From a virus (taxonomy: Duplodnaviria > Caudoviricetes), in the IMG/VR virus record IMGVR_UViG_3300017780_003104, positions 64,001 through 128,000 of that record: a DNA stretch of 64,000 nucleotides, one strand, 5' to 3'. The number at the start of each line of letters is the position of its first letter. Position 1 is the stretch's first letter. The position numbers and the translations under genes were made by a program. Shown piece by piece: positions 550 to 11,542 of this stretch. Under the pieces are notes generated by a model, which worked only from the letters and a program-made list of their open reading frames with translations, was not told where the DNA came from and made no database searches.

Positions 550-780
550 ATGATAACGATAGAGAAGAAAAATGGTGAAGTTGTTGAGATGACAACAGAT
601 GAATTCAGCAGATGGATGTGTTTAGCTGAAGCATTCTACTTCATTGAAGAAAAAGCAAATGAACTTAAAATAGATGTATCAGATTTATTGAAACCTTTAG
701 CCATTGATGGATATATAAAGGAACGATTTGATGCAATGCGTCATGATATTGGTTGTGAGTTGGCACTTGGTAATCTATAA
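550..780 (+). CDS. Hypothetical protein
   Basis: 76-aa ORF directly downstream of a conserved box promoter. Confidence 0.7.
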   Translation: MITIEKKNGEVVEMTTDEFSRWMCLAEAFYFIEEKANELKIDVSDLLKPLAIDGYIKERFDAMRHDIGCELALGNL

Positions 781-1607
781 ATAGATTCCAATTCTAAATC
801 GATTGAACTTATGTAATCTTGTGTGATTACTGATTTAAACTCATTTAATAATTGGGTTTTATCTAAACCAAGCTCAGTAAACCCAATATAAAAGTTTCTA
901 AATCTTTCTTTTAAATTATTTGGATAAGTTGTACCATTCGGTCTTTCGAATTTATGCATCCATCGTAAAAATGGTAAGCATATTACTTTCTTACCATTTT
1001 TTCTATATTTTTCGTGGATATAGCCTTCCTCACCACCGAATCCTGTAAAATTCTTGTTGAAACCCAGCCAAGAATCAGTTCTACACGAAAAAAGACCCAT
1101 TCCTTGTGCTGGAATCTCAAATGGGGAGTCATCTATATTCATGCCCTTACCATCACTAGCCCATTTCCCCCACATATAACTCCCCCAATGACTTAAATCA
1201 AAATAAGTGCTGACGGTCTTATTATCATCGTATAATAATGGACCATGTAATAGATTTCCATCATCTTCACCAGATTCATAGTAATCTATTAATTTTTTCA
1301 AAGATCCCGGTTCAAGTAAAACGTGGGAATCGATACACATTGTATATGGAGTGTCTGATAATGCAAAAACTTTACCTTTTAGCATACTTGACTGGTAATT
1401 AACAAATGGAAGATACTGAATTGGCTCAGTTACCCAATTTAAAAGTTTTTTAACGGATTCGCCATGTTTACCAGTTGGATTATTATCAACTATTACAAAT
1501 TCGATATCATCCAACACTTCTTTATGATACATTCTAATCGATTGAATTGTAAAATAAAGTCCGTCAAAGTCATCGTGGGTTGCCACACCAATAGTAAGCT
1601 TTCTCAT
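741..1607 (-). CDS. Glycosyltransferase family 2 (GT-A fold)
   Basis: N-terminal LTIGVAT..D, FVIVDNN, DxH/DxD-like CIDSH, GMGLFS and GFGGEE motifs; TAAATA-N6-ATG upstream. Confidence 0.85.
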   Translation of the reverse strand: MRKLTIGVATHDDFDGLYFTIQSIRMYHKEVLDDIEFVIVDNNPTGKHGESVKKLLNWVTEPIQYLPFVNYQSSMLKGKVFALSDTPYTMCIDSHVLLEPGSLKKLIDYYESGEDDGNLLHGPLLYDDNKTVSTYFDLSHWGSYMWGKWASDGKGMNIDDSPFEIPAQGMGLFSCRTDSWLGFNKNFTGFGGEEGYIHEKYRKNGKKVICLPFLRWMHKFERPNGTTYPNNLKERFRNFYIGFTELGLDKTQLLNEFKSVITQDYISSIDLELESIYRLPSANSQPIS

Positions 1608-1619
1608 TGGTGATATTTA

Positions 1620-2483
1620 TTAAAATTTTAATGTTTTACAAGAATATAAACACACTGTGGTATTTGATGTAGTAGTGACCAGTGTTGGTGGTTGTGTGGT
1701 TGTTGTTTCTGGTGGTAATGTAGTGGTTACAGTTATATTTGAGAAATTATTCCCATCTCTCTCATTAGTATTGAATATTAAAGGTGTTGGAGAATTTGGT
1801 GATATCAGAATATTAGTTACATCATAGTTAGGCGAGACTATAAGCGTAGTTGGAACGGGCCAAGCACAACAATCCCTATCATCATCAATAGTCCCCCAGC
1901 TATCTTCACCTGATAATGGTATAGATGGGGTAGTAGTAGGACTATTAGGATCTATAGTTGTTGTAGTTGTTGTAGTGGGAGCTACAGTAGTAGTTGTAGT
2001 GGGAGCTACAGTAGTAGTTGTAGTGGGAGCTACAGTAGTAGTTGTAGTGGGAGCTACAGTAGTAGTTGTAGTGGGAGCTACAGTAGTAGTTGTAGTAGTT
2101 GTGGGTGAAGGAATCTTCAATACATTCCAAAGATCTATTAGATTTTTATCAAAGTCATATACAGAACTTAATGGGATTGCTGACCCCATTCCAAATGCTC
2201 CAAATTTAGTAATACTAAATTCGAGGGGGTAACGTCCACTCCTTCTTCCATTGCTCGCCATGAAATACATATTAGCAAGTGGAGGATCGAATATTGGAAC
2301 ATATGACGAACTTAATAATATATTACCACTGAGACTTGTACTTACATTATATACATAATGAGTGTCAGAATTAACTATGCTATTAATTACACCATCACTA
2401 CTAGATAATAAAGACGAAGCTGTTTGGGACCATCCAAAAGCTGATCCAGACGAAGTAGAAGTTTTGAATATACCAAATGCCAT
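1620..2483 (-). CDS. Thr/Pro-rich (mucin-like) putative virion protein
   Basis: (VAPTTTTT)x5 tract, CC pair, second Thr tract, C-terminal CLYSCKTLKF; located in tail-appendage operon. Confidence 0.7.
   Translation of the reverse strand: MAFGIFKTSTSSGSAFGWSQTASSLLSSSDGVINSIVNSDTHYVYNVSTSLSGNILLSSSYVPIFDPPLANMYFMASNGRRSGRYPLEFSITKFGAFGMGSAIPLSSVYDFDKNLIDLWNVLKIPSPTTTTTTTVAPTTTTTVAPTTTTTVAPTTTTTVAPTTTTTVAPTTTTTTTIDPNSPTTTPSIPLSGEDSWGTIDDDRDCCAWPVPTTLIVSPNYDVTNILISPNSPTPLIFNTNERDGNNFSNITVTTTLPPETTTTQPPTLVTTTSNTTVCLYSCKTLKF
1969..2088. repeat. Perfect 24-bp tandem repeat x5 (GTTGTAGTGGGAGCTACAGTAGTA)
   Basis: Read directly; encodes VAPTTTTT on the minus strand. Confidence 0.95.
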
Positions 2484-2486
2484 TAT

Positions 2487-3614
2487 TTAATATGGTGTTT
2501 CAACAAATAGTTGAGCCGTATTTTTAAATGATAGGACTTTATTTACTGGTATATTTACTGGTGTATCGTAATTAATCACATTGATAATTGAGGTTGTAGA
2601 ACCAGAAAAATATCCAAGTATTATTTGTGATATATCACTACCTCCAACAGTAACCAGTCCATATACGTTTGTATTAGCTGTTGAATTGTTGGTAATAGTT
2701 GGTAATCTATCAGATGTAATATCTAAAGCCGTAATGGTTTCAGTTGGGATATTACTGGCAGCTACGTATATAGTTGAGCTGTAAGGAATACCTGAAATTG
2801 ACGATACTTTGTTAGCATTATTCATTAGTAATATTCTATTTGGAATATTACTAGCTGTGCTTATATCTGTGGTTAAATGGAGAAATCTTTGGAGTGTTCC
2901 ACTCCCACTTAAACCTTGTATGTAATCATCATTTGTAAAGGGTCTAGGTATTCCAATGTCAATAGTAAATGTATTTTTAAAATCACGTATAATTAGAGAA
3001 TCTCCGATACTTAAAGTAATAGCTGGGGTTAGCATGATATAAGCACTAATACTTTGAGTCGGAGCGTATACGATAGTATTAATGGTTTGTGGGACAACTA
3101 CTGGGGCAAATAATCCAGATAACGATCTAGACACTGAACTAGGTGTTGTGGTTAGTGTATTTGAGAAAACTGCTGCTTGGTAAGAACCAGTAACCTCACC
3201 ACCATTAAATGGATTAGTTCCAGTTTTATTACGTATTAATTGTGATGGAGTTGTTACACTACCAGATAGAGATATCTGAATAGTGCTTAGATTTCTAACT
3301 AATACGTAAGCTTTTTCACCTGATGGGAATTGCACATGATCCCCAACATTCATACCAGATGCGCTATTGAATATCACATTACCAGTCTGTCTATATACTG
3401 TATTACCCGATAATGTATAAGTTCCAGTCAATAATTCACTTCCGAGTTGGTTGTGGGTCCAGAAGAGAGTATTATTGATACCCATATATATTTGGCGACC
3501 TGCATTAACTGCCCAACTAGACCATATATTATGTCTTTTACCATAATCAACTATAGTTCCATCCTTTTTTAATATCGCCAAATCGATAACTGCTCCTAAT
3601 ATTGGATCTTTCAT
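2487..3614 (-). CDS. Putative tail appendage/fibre protein (paralog A)
   Basis: Beta-rich S/T/G composition; N-terminus LGAVID..KKDGTIVDYGK.HN and C-terminus VETP shared with 3652-4803; TATAAATA-N7-ATG. Confidence 0.6.
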   Translation of the reverse strand: MKDPILGAVIDLAILKKDGTIVDYGKRHNIWSSWAVNAGRQIYMGINNTLFWTHNQLGSELLTGTYTLSGNTVYRQTGNVIFNSASGMNVGDHVQFPSGEKAYVLVRNLSTIQISLSGSVTTPSQLIRNKTGTNPFNGGEVTGSYQAAVFSNTLTTTPSSVSRSLSGLFAPVVVPQTINTIVYAPTQSISAYIMLTPAITLSIGDSLIIRDFKNTFTIDIGIPRPFTNDDYIQGLSGSGTLQRFLHLTTDISTASNIPNRILLMNNANKVSSISGIPYSSTIYVAASNIPTETITALDITSDRLPTITNNSTANTNVYGLVTVGGSDISQIILGYFSGSTTSIINVINYDTPVNIPVNKVLSFKNTAQLFVETPY

Positions 3615-3651
3615 ATATTCTTATTTATAATTAATGTTTATATAGTAAACC

Positions 3652-4803
3652 TTATGGAGTTTCAACGTCCAATTTTAAAGTTGAGTAAATAGTTAAGTTT
3701 CTACTACCCGCTGCTATTGCTATTGGTGTATCATATTCGATTATACATGATATTACGGGTGGTACTGATGCATCACCGACCAATATTTGTTTAATTGGAG
3801 TTGCATCAGATGTGAATGCTCCAAATGCACTTAATAGACTGGTTGCATTATAGTCAATATCAGCTAGGTTATTTCTGGTGGTTGTGCTTATTGTATATTT
3901 CGCAGTCACACTTGGTCTATATGTGGTGGATCGCATCGCTGATAAAAATGGTACTTTATTTGCATCAGTTAGTAGATAAATTCTAGTATTGACCCCAGTA
4001 TGTCCTGTGCCAAGAGAGTATTCATCTCTATCATATGGAATGGTTCGTTGCATTTTACCAGATCCCACCAATCCAGTTATGGGTGATACCGCAAATACTC
4101 TCGGAGCGTCTACATTAAATGTTATTGAATACTGGTAGTCTGGTATCACAAGAGCATCACCCACATCCAACCTTATAGGTGGAACGATATCTATATACCC
4201 TCCATGGAAACTAGTATCATGATATGTTATTCGATATATATCATATGTCGAGAATGTCGGTGGGAATTGGGCAGATAAATTTACACTATATATTCCAGAT
4301 GTGCTTAATGAGGTATAATATGGATCAGTAGTAATTACACCTAGGTTTGTTTGCTTCACTAAAGTATTCGATGTCATATTAATTCCATATCCAACGGATT
4401 CTGTTTTGTGTAATCGAACTATCGAACTTGGTTCAGATCCAGTTACACTAATAGGACAAGATGAGAATGTTGTCGTTCCAGTAGTTTTGTAACATTTAAA
4501 ACCAGATGGGAATTCGAACAACGACCCATTGGGGATAGTTAAAAGTGATACGGGGTTGATACCATATAATATTTTGCCTGTTACATAGTAAGTTCCAGAT
4601 AATGTCGAGGAACCATACCCAAGATCATCGGTGTTATCATATGTTGAGAAGGTTCTAGGGTCAGACATGTAAAGTCTTCTCCATGTTAAACCCTTATTCA
4701 CTAATCCCCCCAATACGTTATGGTATTTTCCATAATTCACCAATGATCCATCATTTTTTATGACAGATATATCTATAACCGCTCCTAATTTCGCATTATT
4801 CAT
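3652..4803 (-). CDS. Putative tail appendage/fibre protein (paralog B)
   Basis: N-terminus LGAVID..KNDGSLVNYGK.HN, C-terminus VETP; paralog of 2487-3614. Confidence 0.6.
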   Translation of the reverse strand: MNNAKLGAVIDISVIKNDGSLVNYGKYHNVLGGLVNKGLTWRRLYMSDPRTFSTYDNTDDLGYGSSTLSGTYYVTGKILYGINPVSLLTIPNGSLFEFPSGFKCYKTTGTTTFSSCPISVTGSEPSSIVRLHKTESVGYGINMTSNTLVKQTNLGVITTDPYYTSLSTSGIYSVNLSAQFPPTFSTYDIYRITYHDTSFHGGYIDIVPPIRLDVGDALVIPDYQYSITFNVDAPRVFAVSPITGLVGSGKMQRTIPYDRDEYSLGTGHTGVNTRIYLLTDANKVPFLSAMRSTTYRPSVTAKYTISTTTRNNLADIDYNATSLLSAFGAFTSDATPIKQILVGDASVPPVISCIIEYDTPIAIAAGSRNLTIYSTLKLDVETP

Positions 4804-4810
4804 CTTATAA

Positions 4811-5389
4811 TTATGTCAATCTTCCAGCTAAGTTCCATATTGCTCCAGTATTATCACTCAAGGAATCGAATATAACATCACCCATAATACCAGATAATCC
4901 ATATACCATACCAGAAGTATCAGTCTCTGTCACATCATATGTATTCCCCATAATACCAGATAATCCATATACCATACCAGAAGTATCAGTTAATATAATA
5001 TCGGATTCGTTTTGACCAACTCCATATAATGTCCCATTTTGCGGGGATTCTAAAACTAATGAAAATACATGAGTGCTACTAACTCCCAAATAGGCTGATG
5101 AGGATTTACCACTATCAAAGTATTGAGAAGACCCATTACCCATAACATACCCACTAATACTATGAGTTGCACTATTTGGATAAGACCCACTGGTACCAGT
5201 TTTTAAACATATCGAATTTGCAGTCGCATTTCCCCAAACTGGGAACCACATAAAGTTATGTAAAGACCATCTACCAGATACTTTCTCGGCAAAAATGAAA
5301 TAATCAATGGCACTTATTTTAAATTCTGGAACCGCTGATCCCATAGCACTTTCAATTGCAGCTACATATATGAGAGTTTCGGGTTCCAT
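4811..5389 (-). CDS. Putative virion protein, lectin-like N-terminal region plus duplicated C-terminal peptide
   Basis: FPVWGNATANSICLK..GNGSSQYFDSG resembles a beta-sandwich module recalled from aquatic phage tail proteins; TDTSGMVYGLSGIMG occurs twice. Confidence 0.55.
   Translation of the reverse strand: MEPETLIYVAAIESAMGSAVPEFKISAIDYFIFAEKVSGRWSLHNFMWFPVWGNATANSICLKTGTSGSYPNSATHSISGYVMGNGSSQYFDSGKSSSAYLGVSSTHVFSLVLESPQNGTLYGVGQNESDIILTDTSGMVYGLSGIMGNTYDVTETDTSGMVYGLSGIMGDVIFDSLSDNTGAIWNLAGRLT
4881..4990. repeat. 44-bp exact direct repeat, period 66 bp
   Basis: CCCATAATACCAGATAATCCATATACCATACCAGAAGTATCAGT at 4881-4924 and 4947-4990. Confidence 0.9.
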
Positions 5390-5391
5390 TT

Positions 5392-6591
5392 TTAGAATTT
5401 AAGTTTTTCACATCCATCATCACACTTTATTATAGTGGTTGTTGTGGTTGTAGTGGTTGTAGTGGTTGTAGTTGTCGTAGTTGTCGGTGCTAATGTAGTT
5501 ATGATAGGTTTAAACTTATCAATATTTAATGGTGGGTTGGTTGATATCAACTGAGGATTAGATAACTGGGATTTTGGTAATATATATTTTGGATATTCTG
5601 TATTATATTCTGGAACTCTTTTAGAGCATGGGCATGCTATATTAGTAGGTTCTGGTGTTGTTGTTGTAGTAGTAGTAGGTTCTGGTGTTGTTGTTATTGT
5701 TGTTATTGGTGTAGGATCTACTATACAAATTTTATTAATCCAAAGATTACCTTGTGGGACGTAATGAGTTCTCTGATATAGTCCCGTATAGGTCCATATA
5801 GCACTTATATGATTATTGGTGAAAACTTCGCTTTCACCATATAGAGTTTCATTGAAGGATGGTAATACTATAATGGTTGGTGTTGGTATTGGTGCTGGGT
5901 TAACGTTTTGTAACACATAGTCATAAGATATATTTGCTAATACGAACCCCACTCCAACAGTCCTTTCAATTAATTCATCCCCATAAGAAGGGTTATATAC
6001 ATCACCTTTATATAAGCTTATTGTAGGCCCCAAACTCCTATACCAAGTTTCATCTGGTTTTGGAAATCCTCCCTCAGTGTTTTCTGGTACGAATGTAATT
6101 TCAACATAGTGTGGAGATGAGATCACTCCACTAACAGATCTTGCATAGTACAATATCGGGTAATCATCTAGTATATTGACAGTAACTGGTAATCTAACTT
6201 CAATATAATTTGGGTTAAACACCTCCCAACCCAACCCAACCCCAACAGTTTGAGTGATGGTAACATCTCCTAAATTATAAGTGTGACCAGCAGTAACATG
6301 TATTGATGGATCTGTAGGTATAAGAAATTGATACTCATTATTAATACCATCAATATTAAGTAGATCGTATGTCCCATCGGCGCAATACTTAACACCTTCC
6401 ACTGTTATCGTTGTATTCTCAATGGTATCGTCATAACCAAGTGCAACTTGGCCATCTATAGCCACAGTCATGATAGACATTTCACCATTAAGATAGCTAA
6501 TATCTGTAGATATAAATGATCGAATAACCCCATAATTACAATAATGGTAATCTTTTGGATCTGGGTATTGTATACTAGGATCTGTTGGCAT
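5392..6591 (-). CDS. Thr/Pro-rich (mucin-like) putative virion protein
   Basis: Two Thr tracts, CPC motif, C-terminal CDDGCEKLKF; N-region similar to 6595-7773 (TTITVEGVKY..DG vs TTIDVVGTKY..DG). Confidence 0.7.
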   Translation of the reverse strand: MPTDPSIQYPDPKDYHYCNYGVIRSFISTDISYLNGEMSIMTVAIDGQVALGYDDTIENTTITVEGVKYCADGTYDLLNIDGINNEYQFLIPTDPSIHVTAGHTYNLGDVTITQTVGVGLGWEVFNPNYIEVRLPVTVNILDDYPILYYARSVSGVISSPHYVEITFVPENTEGGFPKPDETWYRSLGPTISLYKGDVYNPSYGDELIERTVGVGFVLANISYDYVLQNVNPAPIPTPTIIVLPSFNETLYGESEVFTNNHISAIWTYTGLYQRTHYVPQGNLWINKICIVDPTPITTITTTPEPTTTTTTTPEPTNIACPCSKRVPEYNTEYPKYILPKSQLSNPQLISTNPPLNIDKFKPIITTLAPTTTTTTTTTTTTTTTTTIIKCDDGCEKLKF

Positions 6592-6594
6592 AAT

Positions 6595-7773
6595 TTAAAA
6601 CTTTAAAACTTTACAATTATTTAAACATTCGGTAGTTGGTATTAGGGTTGTGGTGGTTGTGGTGGTTGTAGTGGTTGTAGTTGGCTTTAGTGTAGTTGTT
6701 ACGATTATACCCGTATATATCTGTTTCTGGGGAGGATTATTTAAATTTATAATGGGTTGATCAATATATATTGAGTTATCGAATTTAAAATTTGGATTTC
6801 CAGATGGTGTCGATGGAACCTCTGGTAAACATACCTCACAAGGACCAGATGATGGGGAGGGTGTAGTAGTGGTAGTAGTGGTAGTAGTAGTAGTTGGTAT
6901 TGGGGTGGTACCAATAGGCGGAATAACATCACAATTCACCGTCATATCACCAACCGAACATGCAAATCTTGAATGATTATATATTGGTAGCCCTTGTGGT
7001 GGTTGTACATCCCATCCAAGATCACCTTCACCATATACATGAATATATATGGTGTAAGGTAAGTATACTTGCTTAGTTAAATATCCATCGGGCCTAGCTC
7101 CTTCAATGTCTACTTGATTTGTATACGGTATAGTTACCCTAACTGTTGTATTAGTGGTTTCACATGGATGTAATGATTTTAGATTAATCGATTGTAAAGT
7201 TCCTTCGGGGTCATCTAGTAAACCCCCCGAATGGCTAAAAATTACAAAAGATGATGTTCCGCCTATTGTTGGGGTTATCGTCGCTTCCTCTACTAATTCT
7301 GCCGCATAATTATTGTAAGAACTACCAAATGTTGGATTATTATTATTAATATTTCCAGATATTGTCATGACAATATACACAAGATATTCAACTCTATCGT
7401 ATTTTGCACCACCATTGAATCCTTCGCCGAATTCATCGCCAAGGTAGTACTCGTAATCATGATCCGGTAGAGGTATACTGGTTGTGGTTGGCGGATTTAG
7501 TGGTGTATTTACACCATAATCTGTTTTATATATCCAGTAGTTAAATCCTCCGTATATAAGATTAAGAGAATTTATTAATCCATCCCTTATATATTTCGTA
7601 CCTACTACATCTATCGTGGTGTCGGTATGGGGGCCATATAAGGGATCACCGGGAGCTACACATGGTTCAGATGTGAATGCTGTGATGCGCTGGTCTATTA
7701 ATGCATTATAATTTCCATCAGTTGGGTGGAGCCAACTAACTTCGGGTCTATGCACTATAAATGTCGAAGGCAT
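6595..7773 (-). CDS. Thr/Pro-rich (mucin-like) putative virion protein
   Basis: Two Thr tracts, CEVC motif, C-terminal CLNNCKVLKF. Confidence 0.7.
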   Translation of the reverse strand: MPSTFIVHRPEVSWLHPTDGNYNALIDQRITAFTSEPCVAPGDPLYGPHTDTTIDVVGTKYIRDGLINSLNLIYGGFNYWIYKTDYGVNTPLNPPTTTSIPLPDHDYEYYLGDEFGEGFNGGAKYDRVEYLVYIVMTISGNINNNNPTFGSSYNNYAAELVEEATITPTIGGTSSFVIFSHSGGLLDDPEGTLQSINLKSLHPCETTNTTVRVTIPYTNQVDIEGARPDGYLTKQVYLPYTIYIHVYGEGDLGWDVQPPQGLPIYNHSRFACSVGDMTVNCDVIPPIGTTPIPTTTTTTTTTTTPSPSSGPCEVCLPEVPSTPSGNPNFKFDNSIYIDQPIINLNNPPQKQIYTGIIVTTTLKPTTTTTTTTTTTTLIPTTECLNNCKVLKF

Positions 7774-8472
7774 TTACACTGGATTTGCTGTTATACCAGA
7801 TATTGTGGTATATTGATTAATTATATACGAACTTAGCGGTATATATGGAATCGTCTCATACGTTGGGGCTATTATACCTCCTTGAGCATGGAAATCTTTA
7901 ACGAACATAGTCGATGGAGTTACAACAGTATTAATCGGGGAGCAGAATGTGAATCCGGGGTGAAGTGGAAGACTTAAATTTGGCGAAGTTAACGCCACAC
8001 TGGTCAATGTTATATAATTGGATGTTCCAACCCTATAATCGACAGATATTTTCTTTCCACCATTAGTATATCTAAATCTGAGAGTCTGGAATGTTTTATC
8101 TGGTTGTGTTAATATAAAATCTTTAGATAATGATGATAGAGACTCATTTAAAATGACTTCATTGCTAGAATTTCTTATAATTAAGGCATTTTGCTTAATT
8201 GCACTTAGAGCAACACCCGGATGCGGACCTATTGGTAGAGCAAACCTGCCAGTTGTATCAAAAGCAACTGCAAATATACCATTTGGCACGTTTGTATTAC
8301 TATAATAACCTAGTGAATCACCCCCAACGCACGATAATGCGGTGTTACTTAGACTTAAAAATGATGTAAATCCATGTTCCTCACCAGATAATGAGAATGT
8401 GAAACTCCATGCTATATCCCAATGTGGATTATAGTCGTATTTACTGTCTAAAAATCCATATAATTTATCCAT
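7774..8472 (-). CDS. L-type (legume/ConA-like) lectin domain protein
   Basis: HGFTSFL and FAVAFDTTG match the DG-F-F and AVEFDT motifs of legume-lectin folds. Confidence 0.6.
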   Translation of the reverse strand: MDKLYGFLDSKYDYNPHWDIAWSFTFSLSGEEHGFTSFLSLSNTALSCVGGDSLGYYSNTNVPNGIFAVAFDTTGRFALPIGPHPGVALSAIKQNALIIRNSSNEVILNESLSSLSKDFILTQPDKTFQTLRFRYTNGGKKISVDYRVGTSNYITLTSVALTSPNLSLPLHPGFTFCSPINTVVTPSTMFVKDFHAQGGIIAPTYETIPYIPLSSYIINQYTTISGITANPV

Positions 8473-8473
8473 T

Positions 8474-9559
8474 TTAGAAATCTATGGTTAGGCATATATT
8501 AGCATTTTTAGTCACACCAGAAGAATTTATAACTTTAATTTCACATGATGATAGATCTGTTGCCGTCACTCTGGCCGAACAATCCAAGGCATCAGAACCA
8601 ACTATAGTAGCCATTGGGATATAATTAGTAGTTATAGGGAGGAATGTGACTTTATAATGACCAGTGGCTAGTGTTGAGTAACTTATAACATGTCTACTAA
8701 ATACACCACCTCCAGATAATGCATTATACTTAAATAAAAGTTTACTACTACGAATGGTTACATTATTAGTTAATGTTGAGATTTCTGTCCCAGTTGATGT
8801 TAATCCGTTAACCAATGAATATAATCCATGTTCGATAGTGACAGTTTTATCTGATACGAGACTTGCAGGAATATTACCCAAAGCAATCTTCCCATTTTGG
8901 ATATATAACGGTGATGATAGAGCATCTTGGGATATACTATAAGAAGATAATGGATTTAGTGCTATTTTTCCACCAATAACTGATAGGGGTGAGGTTACTG
9001 CGCTATTCGATATATAACCAGCAGGAATACTACCCAATACTATCTTACCATTTTGGATATATAAAGGTGCTGAAAGGGCATCTTGTGATATGCTATAAGC
9101 CGATAATGGATTTAGTGCTATTCTTCCACCACTAACTGATAGGGGTGAGGTTAATAAATCCTGAGATATTGAATTGGCTGATAATGGATTTAAAACTATA
9201 GAATTAGCTGATGATATGGATATGAAACGAGAACCACTATATGATCCCCCAATTGATTTCCAATCACTGATAGTTGCACCATTATTAGCCGATAAAACAT
9301 ATAATGTATTATGTTGAGATGAAAATCCAAAGTCTCCAATAATTGCGGGTTGGATCGCAGAATCCGTTATCAATGGTGATATACCTTTGAACTTATTTCC
9401 TGCGATAACACCACCAACGGTGTAACCATTACCCACAAATAATCGTTCTTGATCTGTTGTAAACCCTAATTCCCCCGAATCTAGGGTAATTTGAGTTCGA
9501 TCAAAATTCGAACCTTGACGAACCTTTAATTTAATAATTGAATTGTTTAAAATTTCCAT
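8474..9559 (-). CDS. Tail fibre protein with Mtd_N/hyaluronidase-N-like domain
   Basis: IKLKVRQG...LDSGELGFTTDQERLFVGNG..GG; internal repeats of about 26/52 aa. Confidence 0.7.
   Translation of the reverse strand: MEILNNSIIKLKVRQGSNFDRTQITLDSGELGFTTDQERLFVGNGYTVGGVIAGNKFKGISPLITDSAIQPAIIGDFGFSSQHNTLYVLSANNGATISDWKSIGGSYSGSRFISISSANSIVLNPLSANSISQDLLTSPLSVSGGRIALNPLSAYSISQDALSAPLYIQNGKIVLGSIPAGYISNSAVTSPLSVIGGKIALNPLSSYSISQDALSSPLYIQNGKIALGNIPASLVSDKTVTIEHGLYSLVNGLTSTGTEISTLTNNVTIRSSKLLFKYNALSGGGVFSRHVISYSTLATGHYKVTFLPITTNYIPMATIVGSDALDCSARVTATDLSSCEIKVINSSGVTKNANICLTIDF
8850..9195. repeat. Degenerate internal repeat, period 156 bp (boundaries approximate)
   Basis: GATAATGGATTTAGTGCTAT(T/C)TTCCACCA starts at 8946 and 9102. 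Confidence 0.75.
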
Positions 9560-9565
9560 AATATA

Positions 9566-10864
9566 TTAGTAAGCGAATATTGGTATTGCAAATCTACCCA
9601 CTTGTTGACCGGATCTAGTTGTAGTATTTCCTTCAAATGTGATAAATCCAGCAGAAGATAATGTTATAACAGATCCATTTGATGATAACGCAGTAAATTG
9701 AGTTATCATCACACCAGTTAGAGGTCCATTTATAGTATGTGATGGACTACCATTAAATAATGCAGATAATGAGTTACTAGAATTGAATGAACTTAATGCG
9801 GAGTTACCGGACAGTGTTCCATATATAGAAGATACTTGAGATGTTACTCTACCAAACGTATCTACTACAATTTGTGGTAGCTGATTAGTTCCAGAAGAAT
9901 TTAAGGTACTTAAGCTTATAACACCAGCATCAGTTTTAACTATAGTATTATTATCTACGTTAGTTAGTGTAGTAGAAATCGAAGATGTGGTGGTGCTGTA
10001 AGTTAAACCACTTCCAAACCACGATGAACTTAAATCAGTGAATCTTAGACTATATGGTAATGGAATATCAGTTTTTAAGCTTATAACACCAGCATCAGTC
10101 TTTATTATAGTAGCATTATCTACGTTAGTTAGTGTGGTCGATAATGAAGATGTTGTTAAACTATAAGTTAAACCACTTCCAAACCACGATGAACTTAAAT
10201 CAGAGAATCTTAGACTATATGGTAAGGGAGTATCAGTTTTCAATGATATAAAATTACCATTAAACTTTAAGAAATTTGTATCTAGATCTACATTTACTAT
10301 ACTTCCAGATCCACCACTCAATCCAAGTCCAAAAGAAGACGATAACATCTCAACTTCTGTTACACCACCAGCTGCTAATTTTAATTTATTAGTGCTTATA
10401 GTGAAATCACCAGTGTCGTAATTCAGTTGTAATATATCTGAGTCTATTTTAATCCCATTACTGATTGTAGTTGGATCTAAATATTTAGATTTTATGGATG
10501 ATAAATTTATTACCAATTGATTGTTTGCATCATAACTAAAAATCGAAGGATCTGCCGATAATCGACCTATAATGGTCCAAGAATTTATATTACTATAATC
10601 TGGAGATGTTAATTGATATAATGTACCTTCAACCGGAACGACATCTCCGATTTCAGATTTAATTGCCAACATCGAAGAGACGGTATATCCATATGGGAAT
10701 ATTTTACTCCCGGTGGGTTTACCACCAAGAGTGACTCCATCACCAACATAAAGTCTGGTAGTGTCCAGTGTGTGTGCTAACTCGCCTTGATCAAATACTA
10801 TTAATTTTCTTTGATCATCGGTGCCTCTTCTGGCTTTTATCTTCGATATTTTAATTTCTGGCAT
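9566..10864 (-). CDS. Tail fibre protein with Mtd_N/hyaluronidase-N-like domain
   Basis: ISKIKARRG...FDQGELAHTLDTTRLYVGDG..GG; 55-aa internal duplication. Confidence 0.7.
   Translation of the reverse strand: MPEIKISKIKARRGTDDQRKLIVFDQGELAHTLDTTRLYVGDGVTLGGKPTGSKIFPYGYTVSSMLAIKSEIGDVVPVEGTLYQLTSPDYSNINSWTIIGRLSADPSIFSYDANNQLVINLSSIKSKYLDPTTISNGIKIDSDILQLNYDTGDFTISTNKLKLAAGGVTEVEMLSSSFGLGLSGGSGSIVNVDLDTNFLKFNGNFISLKTDTPLPYSLRFSDLSSSWFGSGLTYSLTTSSLSTTLTNVDNATIIKTDAGVISLKTDIPLPYSLRFTDLSSSWFGSGLTYSTTTSSISTTLTNVDNNTIVKTDAGVISLSTLNSSGTNQLPQIVVDTFGRVTSQVSSIYGTLSGNSALSSFNSSNSLSALFNGSPSHTINGPLTGVMITQFTALSSNGSVITLSSAGFITFEGNTTTRSGQQVGRFAIPIFAY
9911..10240. repeat. 165-bp near-identical tandem duplication
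   Basis: AAGCTTATAACACCAGCATCAGT starts at 9912 and 10077; encodes SLKTD.PLPYSLRF.DLSSSWFGSGLTYS...VDN.TI.KTDAGVI twice. Confidence 0.9.
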
Positions 10865-10879
10865 ATTGAATATATCTAA

Positions 10880-11542
10880 TTACGCTGTTCTCTTCCAAAT
10901 ATATAGACCAAATGATGGTGGCATGTTATTATGTGCGCCACTACCACCAGCACTTGGTAACACTCCCATATATCTTCCATCCTTTGAATCGTCCGGTCCA
11001 TCGCTTCTAAATCTCGACTCAGTGGTTGGACTTGATTCATTACGATCATTGAACAAATAGAACTGTTCTCCATCTGAAGCTTTAAGACTATGAGTGTGTG
11101 ATGGCATTTCCGATTCGGAAAGGGTGTGTCTATATTCTCCAGAATTTTCCCCCCCGGCTATAGTTACACTAACCCCATTAGAATCAACTCCAGTGCCAAT
11201 CCCTGCGACAAACATCCCCTCACTTATACGAACCCATGTTCCACCCATCGAGTAACCGGGATTTAAATCAACCGCTGTGAAATACACAGTATGGACTGGA
11301 AAAAAACGATTTAAAAGTGTCGTATACTCAGCCTCTGTGTCTACATTTTCGATAACTAACGATCCCACTGTTAATTGTCCACAAATTCTAGCCCCATTAC
11401 AAGTTCTACCTAGACTGAAGGAACTTTCGTTGCCAAGACCATCATACATGGGGGTAAGCCCAGTTTCAGGTAAAGGTTGACCCCCTGAATGTAATAAACC
11501 ATCGAAGGTATCTGCGATATATGTATCTGATAAAGAACTCAT
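10880..11542 (-). CDS. Baseplate/short-fibre protein with gp10 C-terminal-like domain
   Basis: FFPVHTVYFT...NPG..GGTWVRISEG, HTLSESEMPSHTH, HNNMPPSFGLYIWKRTA. Confidence 0.75.
   Translation of the reverse strand: MSSLSDTYIADTFDGLLHSGGQPLPETGLTPMYDGLGNESSFSLGRTCNGARICGQLTVGSLVIENVDTEAEYTTLLNRFFPVHTVYFTAVDLNPGYSMGGTWVRISEGMFVAGIGTGVDSNGVSVTIAGGENSGEYRHTLSESEMPSHTHSLKASDGEQFYLFNDRNESSPTTESRFRSDGPDDSKDGRYMGVLPSAGGSGAHNNMPPSFGLYIWKRTA

Follow-up and report, generated by a model that had tools for sequence, protein, structure and literature searches.

The stretch of DNA analysed here, called the window below, comprises 64,000 nucleotides of a tailed-phage genome (Caudoviricetes; IMG/VR record IMGVR_UViG_3300017780_003104) and corresponds to bases 64001-128000 of a single 211,724-bp contig with 34% G+C. 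Its genes include those for a T4-type terminase and a tail sheath, for two fibres with an Mtd_N N-terminus and for a Gp10_C baseplate protein. In the same region, three open reading frames (ORFs) on the minus strand code for proteins that we call A, B and C (Table 1). The positions of these ORFs and their terminal sequences were as given in a first-pass annotation made from the sequence alone, and so was their layout: from the N-terminus, a head, a Thr tract, a Cys pair, a spacer, a second Thr tract, and an end of the form C-x3-C-x2-LKF. The Cys pair is CC in A (residues 205-206), CPC in B (320-322) and CEVC in C (312-315), the spacer behind it is about 45 residues long in all three, and the upstream cysteines lie 83/82, 80/78 and 81/78 residues from the C-terminus, respectively.

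Table 1. Genes and modules of the window discussed in the text (window positions).
Feature	Positions	Strand	Description and basis
GT2-family glycosyltransferase, 288 aa	741..1607	-	Pfam PF00535, E 7e-7
Protein A, 287 aa	1620..2483	-	head ~125 aa, repeated Thr-rich linker, CC-type module
Module of A, 88 aa	1623..1886	-	CC 1866-1871, Pro-rich segment, Thr tract, end CLYSCKTLKF 1623-1652
Outer Thr linker of A	1963..2096	-	tandem repeat, 24 nt x 5.6 copies, 99% match (Tandem Repeats Finder, TRF)
Two paralogs, 32% identical	2487-3614 and 3652-4803	-	between B and A, without module; BLASTP E 5e-38
ORF, 192 aa	4811..5389	-	between B and the paralog pair; without family match, without module
Protein B, 399 aa	5392..6591	-	orphan head ~290 aa, Thr linker, CPC-type module
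Module of B, 85 aa	5395..5649	-	CPC 5626-5634, end CDDGCEKLKF 5395-5424
Protein C, 392 aa	6595..7773	-	orphan head ~285 aa, Thr linker, CxxC-type module
Module of C, 86 aa	6598..6855	-	CEVC 6829-6840, end CLNNCKVLKF 6598-6627
Protein of legume-lectin-like (ConA-like) fold, 232 aa	7774..8472	-	AF2 + Foldseek
Fibre with Mtd_N N-terminus	8474-9559		Pfam
Fibre with Mtd_N N-terminus	9566-10864		Pfam
Gp10_C baseplate protein	10880-11542		Pfam

We propose that A, B and C represent a hitherto undescribed family of phage appendage proteins, defined by a strictly C-terminal module of approximately 85 residues (hereafter "stalk-and-clasp"), and that this module serves as an anchor on the virion, a role to which we give an even chance. 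Among all stop-to-stop ORFs of at least 30 residues in the 211,724-bp genome, the C-x3-C-x2-LKF end was limited to A, B and C, whereas 2e-5 such ends are expected by chance from the composition of the 301 ORFs of at least 100 residues. Likewise, Thr runs of five or more residues were found within the genome only in these three proteins.

A profile hidden Markov model (HMM) was built from ten modules and run exhaustively, with a threshold of E 1e-3, on 1.84 billion representative proteins. It returned 32 matches, and all 32 finish at the last residue of the protein. In the genome of the window, the profile matched A, B and C only, with E values of 4e-15 for A (residues 204-288, counted along the stop-to-stop frame of 288 codons, one more than protein A has), 9e-21 for B and 1e-23 for C. 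The shared end had been taken for a tag of nine residues, to be looked for in homologs by a pattern search. Homologs do carry it, and it is real, conserved and strictly C-terminal, but what is conserved is much longer: the alignment of 38 modules is nearly gap-free over some 85 residues, and reads CxPC-[YLF]P-xVPxTP-xxPP[FI]-xLPTT ... PxxNPLTxxI, followed by about 20 Thr-rich residues and then the end. The module opens with a Cys element, which may be CxPC-[YLF]P, CC-xWP or one Cys only; a conserved, hydrophobic segment rich in Pro comes next, then a Thr tract whose length is constrained, and last C-x(3-9)-C-[NK]-x-L-x-[FYW]-COOH. This last is the family-wide pattern; the fixed form C-x3-C-x2-LKF holds for A, B and C.

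Statistics on the end were drawn from 54 non-redundant sequences. Leu occupied position -3 in 54 of the 54 and an aromatic residue position -1 in 54 of the 54 (41 F, 11 Y, 2 W), in a set part of which had been preselected by a pattern requiring a hydrophobic residue at -3 and an aromatic one at -1; the 32 profile matches were selected without this pattern. Position -5 was N or K in 49 of the ends, and the loop between the two terminal cysteines measured 3, 4, 5, 6 or 9 residues in 36, 5, 7, 3 and 3 of them. On the other side of the module, 37 of 47 members have their nearest upstream Cys at a distance of 76-88 residues from the end. With this spacing, the inner Thr tract cannot be called a free, flexible stalk, and the flexible stalks proposed at first fit poorly with so tightly conserved a module length. 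The outer Thr linker of A, made of repeats of an eight-residue unit, APTTTTTV, behaves differently: contigs of two other freshwater metagenomes have one extra codon at position 2057, so that its length is variable whereas that inside the module is fixed. Every Thr tract of A, B and C interrupts the metagenome assemblies, so that this codon is all that the comparison of lengths yields.

Across 24 relatives, Leu(-3) is encoded by five different codons, the last residue by TTT, TTC, TAT, TAC or TGG, and each of the three stop codons occurs. Such synonymous codon turnover indicates that conservation acts on the protein and not on a DNA element. We considered that the LKF-stop codons might be constrained by a downstream promoter box, and rejected this: the codons show synonymous variation, and the box is located beyond the stop.

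The first-pass annotation did not recognise the motif from any described family, and our searches agree. A, B and C had no family match at E 0.01 or better in Pfam or PHROGs, the module profile had no match at E 0.1 or better among PDB sequences, and a description of the motif was not found in literature searches. Known C-terminal sorting signals are the LPXTG motif with a hydrophobic stretch and a basic tail, the PEP motif with a membrane helix (PEP-CTERM), the 80-residue beta-sandwich C-terminal domain (CTD) of the type IX secretion system (T9SS), and the CaaX box with Cys at -4. Inspection of the ends shows neither an LPXTG nor a PEP motif, and no hydrophobic helix at the terminus; the last Cys stands at -6 and not at -4. 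A, B and C have no Pfam match to the T9SS CTD. An AlphaFold2 (AF2) monomer model of the C-type module, from a 34-sequence alignment, was extended and without strands or tertiary fold (predicted local distance difference test, pLDDT, 78; predicted template modelling score, pTM, 0.20), with a single helix at residues 75-83, over the Cx3C. The model is suggestive of a stiff rod rich in Pro, as opposed to a globular domain or a completely disordered tail.

Relatives were sought in several ways. Scanning viral contigs with a back-translated DNA pattern gave 64 loci, 62 of which were chance matches in short ORFs. The two real ones, L063 and L064, are both syntenic with the window and have the same end after Pro/Thr tracts. 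L063 holds two members, a 93-residue protein that is the module alone (CVPC ... CDTGCNVLKF) and a 250-residue A-type protein (CCPWP ... CDSYCNALNF). A search of viral and metagenome contigs anchored on the GT2 glycosyltransferase gene provided 24 distinct ends, from marine and freshwater samples. With protein C as query, no relative was found in viral contigs, and its sole homolog among 5.8 billion cluster representatives was P0001, the head of which is unrelated to that of C while the module is 68-69% identical.

The heads are as variable as the module is constant. In word-based searches, the head of B had no homolog among the 5.8 billion cluster representatives and that of A none beyond itself, although it is 49% identical to the head of a protein of another locus (L066, 393-1457). 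Searches of the ESM Atlas with the heads of B and C gave no usable match, the Atlas models having a pLDDT of about 0.25. Within the window, the head of A had been described as unrelated to the other two. BLASTP bears this out for A versus C, where similarity is confined to the last 10 residues (E 0.024). B and C share weak matches only, over 22 residues of the head (E 0.016) and over the C-terminal 78 residues (E 0.07). Among 43 non-redundant complete members, the 31 heads of at least 60 residues fall into 23 groups unrelated by BLAST, so that the idea of interchangeable heads is supported; two heads contain PKD domains. Another 10 of the 43 members, 78-119 residues long, are headless, and the module must therefore be regarded as the core of these proteins and not merely as a tag.

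The position of the module genes is conserved as well. In the window, in seven other loci (L063, L068, L078, L095, L096, L098, L153) and in the P0004 contig, the order is Gp10_C, Mtd_N fibre, Mtd_N fibre, a lectin-fold protein of about 240 residues, one or more module proteins, and GT2. After GT2 come, on the opposite strand, homologs of window 550-780 and 68-523. The module gene sits at the distal end of a baseplate and fibre operon, a position kept in more than 25 loci. In the P0004 contig (213,620 bp), the only gene between the 246-residue protein and GT2 is a headless module of 98 residues. The module ORF ends at most 30 nt from the GT2 start in 20 loci, in which GT2 is 54-70% identical to that of the window; the two genes also adjoin in the window, L063, L064 and L153.

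The GT2 gene of the window starts 13 nt after the stop of A, behind a TAAATA box, and its product is a candidate for the enzyme glycosylating the Thr tracts. Compared with PDB sequences, it has a weak N-terminal likeness to the N-acetylglucosamine transferase TarP (E 1.6e-3), which does not identify its sugar or acceptor. T4-type late promoter boxes (TATAAATA or TAAATA) lie immediately 5' of several genes of the operon. A TAATTA or TAAATA box is conserved between the module gene and GT2 in more than 20 loci, adjoining the stop of the former and leaving 5-9 nt to the start of the latter (window 1608-1619, with an equivalent site in L064, L066 and L073-L105); it looks like a late promoter dedicated to the GT2 gene. 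The P0004 contig carries a second, larger glycosyltransferase gene, with Glyco_transf_25 and Glyco_transf_61 matches, back to back with GT2 (genes 8330-9091 and 9081-10832), which suggests that some relatives build a longer glycan.

The gene directly 5' of the first module gene, in the window and in relatives, encodes the lectin-fold protein. It has no Pfam lectin match. Its AF2 model (12 homologs) had a pLDDT of 72 and a pTM of 0.75, and the top 50 PDB structures retrieved with it by Foldseek were almost all legume lectins (E 1e-6 to 3e-5, template modelling (TM) score up to 0.56; for 2pel, E 1e-6 and TM 0.54). As to the residues that bind sugar and metal in lectins, it has an AFDT motif similar to their EFDT; the Asp (D72) is invariant, the Glu position is not kept. 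The model leaves the last 30 residues or so disordered; their consensus, PLSxNPNTxxTTVSxITA, has a loose resemblance to NPLTxxITTT in the centre of the module. The possibility that read-through fuses the lectin-fold and module genes was considered and rejected, since their frame relation differs between loci. Elsewhere, L110 (6085-9960, plus strand) encodes a protein of 1291 residues with an N-terminal lectin-fold domain of 240 residues, then domains separated by Thr tracts, without clasp; its C-terminal region appears leucine-rich-repeat-like by eye. It may be a fused counterpart of the lectin-fold and module-protein pair.

The terminase of the phage has only about 32% identity with those of T4-like cyanophages, and megablast of positions 1500-8500 against the phages of GenBank (50,697 records) gave no match. 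It is therefore a member of an uncultured clade of the T4 superfamily. Freshwater metagenomes of several studies hold near-identical contigs.

Taken with this genomic setting, the reading that we favour, at even odds of being right, is that the module holds A, B and C on the virion, at the baseplate and fibre apparatus. As heads are hypervariable or missing, an anchor must lie in the module, and the place is suggested by gene position. The Pro/Thr segment would be an extended spacer of fixed length, probably stiffened by O-glycans from the adjacent GT2, with the Thr tract as the likely acceptor. The Cys element and the terminal Cys loop would be the clasps, by way of disulfides formed after lysis or of metal sites, and the terminal L-x-aromatic carboxylate would act as a hydrophobic plug or as an added strand. 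The near-constant 76-88 residues between the Cys sites could reflect a two-point attachment over a fixed distance, or chains paired in register. A more detailed scheme can be imagined, in which GT2 sugar-coats the Thr tract, the lectin-fold protein grips the glycan or the Pro-rich segment, and the Cys clasps lock the joint after lysis; we consider it decidedly improbable. If it were true, a lectin-glycan joint would let the phage hang any head, or a bare glyco-stalk, on its tail, and we know of no described principle of phage assembly of this kind. A complex prediction for the lectin-fold protein with the C-type module scored 0.01, against a mark of 0.32, in a run without controls, and weighs neither for nor against such a joint.

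Several observations weigh against a virion anchor. In L089, L090, L091, L097 and L104, the lectin-fold gene directly precedes GT2 without any module gene, so the module is dispensable for the particle, and in L067, L070 and L071 GT2 follows Thr/Ser-rich proteins without clasp. Members with a single upstream Cys exist, which means that a fixed site of four Cys is not universal. Disulfides would have to form after release, as the cytoplasm in which these proteins are made is reducing. With GT2 and the 232-residue lectin-fold protein as queries, tblastn found no counterpart in the 50,697 GenBank phage records. Finally, association with the virion is argued entirely from gene position and late-promoter-like boxes.

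Rather than attaching to the virion, the clasp could be an oligomerisation or folding nucleus, the Cys sites stapling two or three parallel chains in register, with virion attachment elsewhere in the module. Precedents are the CPPCP (CPPC) hinge of immunoglobulin G, the C-terminal CC knot of collagen III, the CxxxxC junction, or knot, of fibril-associated collagens with interrupted triple helices (FACIT), and the C-terminal foldon of T4 fibritin (wac). As in the cystine staples, paired Cys (CxPC, CC, Cx3-9C) stand here beside Pro-rich extended sequence at stalk ends, and adjacent CC, or CxPC followed by Pro, make poor intrachain partners. Both Cys sites are a fixed distance apart, in the AF2 model of the C-type module C77, C81 and L84 share one face of the short helix, and single genomes hold several module types (CC, CPC and CxxC in the window, CC and CxxC in L063), whose in-register hetero-oligomers would explain why paralogs conserve the length of the module. 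However, homo-oligomers need no such length constraint, yet genomes with a single module keep the same length. The Cys loop varies from 3 to 9 residues, often with Pro, so that the helix is not general, and the single-Cys variants fit no better with a staple. Unlike collagen and FACIT, no module of the 38-module alignment has Gly-X-Y repeats, and immunoglobulin domains are absent too. Fibritin is similar in having a short, strictly C-terminal element with a hydrophobic ending, and a gene placed after those for baseplate and short fibres. It differs by its coiled-coil shaft and its Cys-less foldon; the sequences are unlike, and the Pfam search with A, B and C hit no fibritin family. Such stapling is a possible explanation, if an unlikely one. 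The module could also be mainly an acceptor and recognition handle, whose Pro-rich segment and clasp recruit GT2 to the Thr tract, the end then serving substrate targeting and not assembly. The close adjacency with GT2 in the 20 loci and in the window, L063, L064 and L153, the confinement of the genome's Thr tracts to the three module proteins, and the headless members, which are little more than a Thr tract and its flanks, speak for this. In mycobacteriophages, moreover, glycosyltransferases of the phage modify C-terminal extensions of virion proteins (Freeman et al. 2023, as reported in PMC12619734). We nevertheless hold the handle to be improbable: homologs of GT2 with 50-61% identity follow the clasp-less Thr/Ser-rich proteins or the lectin-fold gene directly, which makes GT2 independent of the clasp, and a recognition handle need not sit at the exact C-terminus in every member.

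Two further explanations seem still weaker candidates. A, B and C might be late products that are not part of the virion but soluble or on the host surface, for example mucin-like decoys or adhesins released at lysis, with an end that serves stability or localisation. A survey of pelagimyophages, in which glycosyltransferases, concanavalin-A domains and Mtd domains occur in host-recognition clusters, reads the glycosyltransferases of these clusters as modifiers of the host surface (PMC7029224). Nonetheless, inspection by eye of the three N-termini reveals no evident signal peptide or membrane segment; the genes are packed, starting directly after the stops of baseplate, fibre and lectin-fold genes, and they keep this place in the loci mentioned above. 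We regard a non-virion role as very improbable. As for the shared end being a by-product of recent duplication or of low-complexity sequence, without function, B and C are indeed adjacent and weakly similar in their heads. Against this, the end is kept across marine and freshwater relatives (with GT2 54-70% identical), behind unrelated heads and through synonymous turnover, and the chance expectation, the profile search and the end statistics likewise contradict a by-product, which is almost certainly wrong.

If the module is indeed a virion anchor, as we favour, it can be compared with known modular attachment. Tail fibres and tailspikes of phages have conserved N-terminal anchors, while the C-terminal domain of T4 Hoc binds the capsid and its Ig-like domains project from it. 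Our proteins resemble these in combining a conserved terminal module with hypervariable, exchangeable domains, some of them PKD/Ig-like, and in being encoded within a structural cluster. They differ in having the conserved part at the C-terminus, in its non-globular character (rich in Pro and Thr, with a predicted extended shape), in its two Cys sites and invariant L-x-aromatic end, and in the existence of headless members. A conserved anchor with variable domains is thus a known principle; the anchor itself is new.

For the pairing of GT2 with Thr tracts, the nearest demonstrated system is, by analogy, virion O-glycosylation in mycobacteriophages. According to accounts of the work of Freeman et al. 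(2023, Cell Host Microbe 31:1216) in PMC12619734 and PMC12582341, phage glycosyltransferases act there on C-terminal Ser/Thr-rich extensions, the substrates being capsid and tail-tube subunits. In both cases a glycosyltransferase gene lies beside structural genes with C-terminal Ser/Thr-rich extensions: in our phages, GT2 (PF00535) adjoins a protein with a Ser/Thr-rich C-terminus in the window and in at least 20 loci. Unlike in mycobacteriophages, the putative acceptors are separate accessory proteins of aquatic T4-like myoviruses, with long poly-Thr tracts, Cys clasps and variable heads.

The module, hitherto uncatalogued, is common to T4-like phages, marine and freshwater, of a widespread uncultured clade. 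It provides a rule for finding accessory appendage proteins, namely a strictly terminal C-loop and L-x-aromatic after a Pro/Thr stalk, beside lectin-fold and GT2 genes, and makes findable heads that are otherwise orphan sequences. Were it confirmed as a virion anchor, it would mark an exchange point for host-interaction domains, and offer a natural handle for displaying foreign domains on particles. Since it is constantly paired with a lectin-fold protein and a glycosyltransferase, aquatic myoviruses allow a direct test of whether phages encode mucin-type glycosylation of their virion appendages.

Other genes of the region lack the module. The two paralogs between B and A belong, in the ESM Atlas, to viral-only clusters, with a fibre family (gp80) as lead at 0.85, and a homolog of them lies just upstream of the A-like gene in L066; they are likely to be fibre-like proteins of the virion. 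Three other freshwater studies yielded near-identical strains in which unlike sequence takes the place of the middle of the paralog at 2487-3614 (approximately 2665-2733 and 3289-3522), while protein C differs at few positions. It is thus this gene, and not A, B or C, that looks fast-diversifying. At the left edge of the window, on the plus strand, positions 68-523 encode a protein of 151 residues with hydrophobic segments at the N-terminus and a CxC...CxxC C-terminus, and positions 550-780 one of 76 residues. This divergent pair adjoins GT2 in most related loci, and may be part of the same system.

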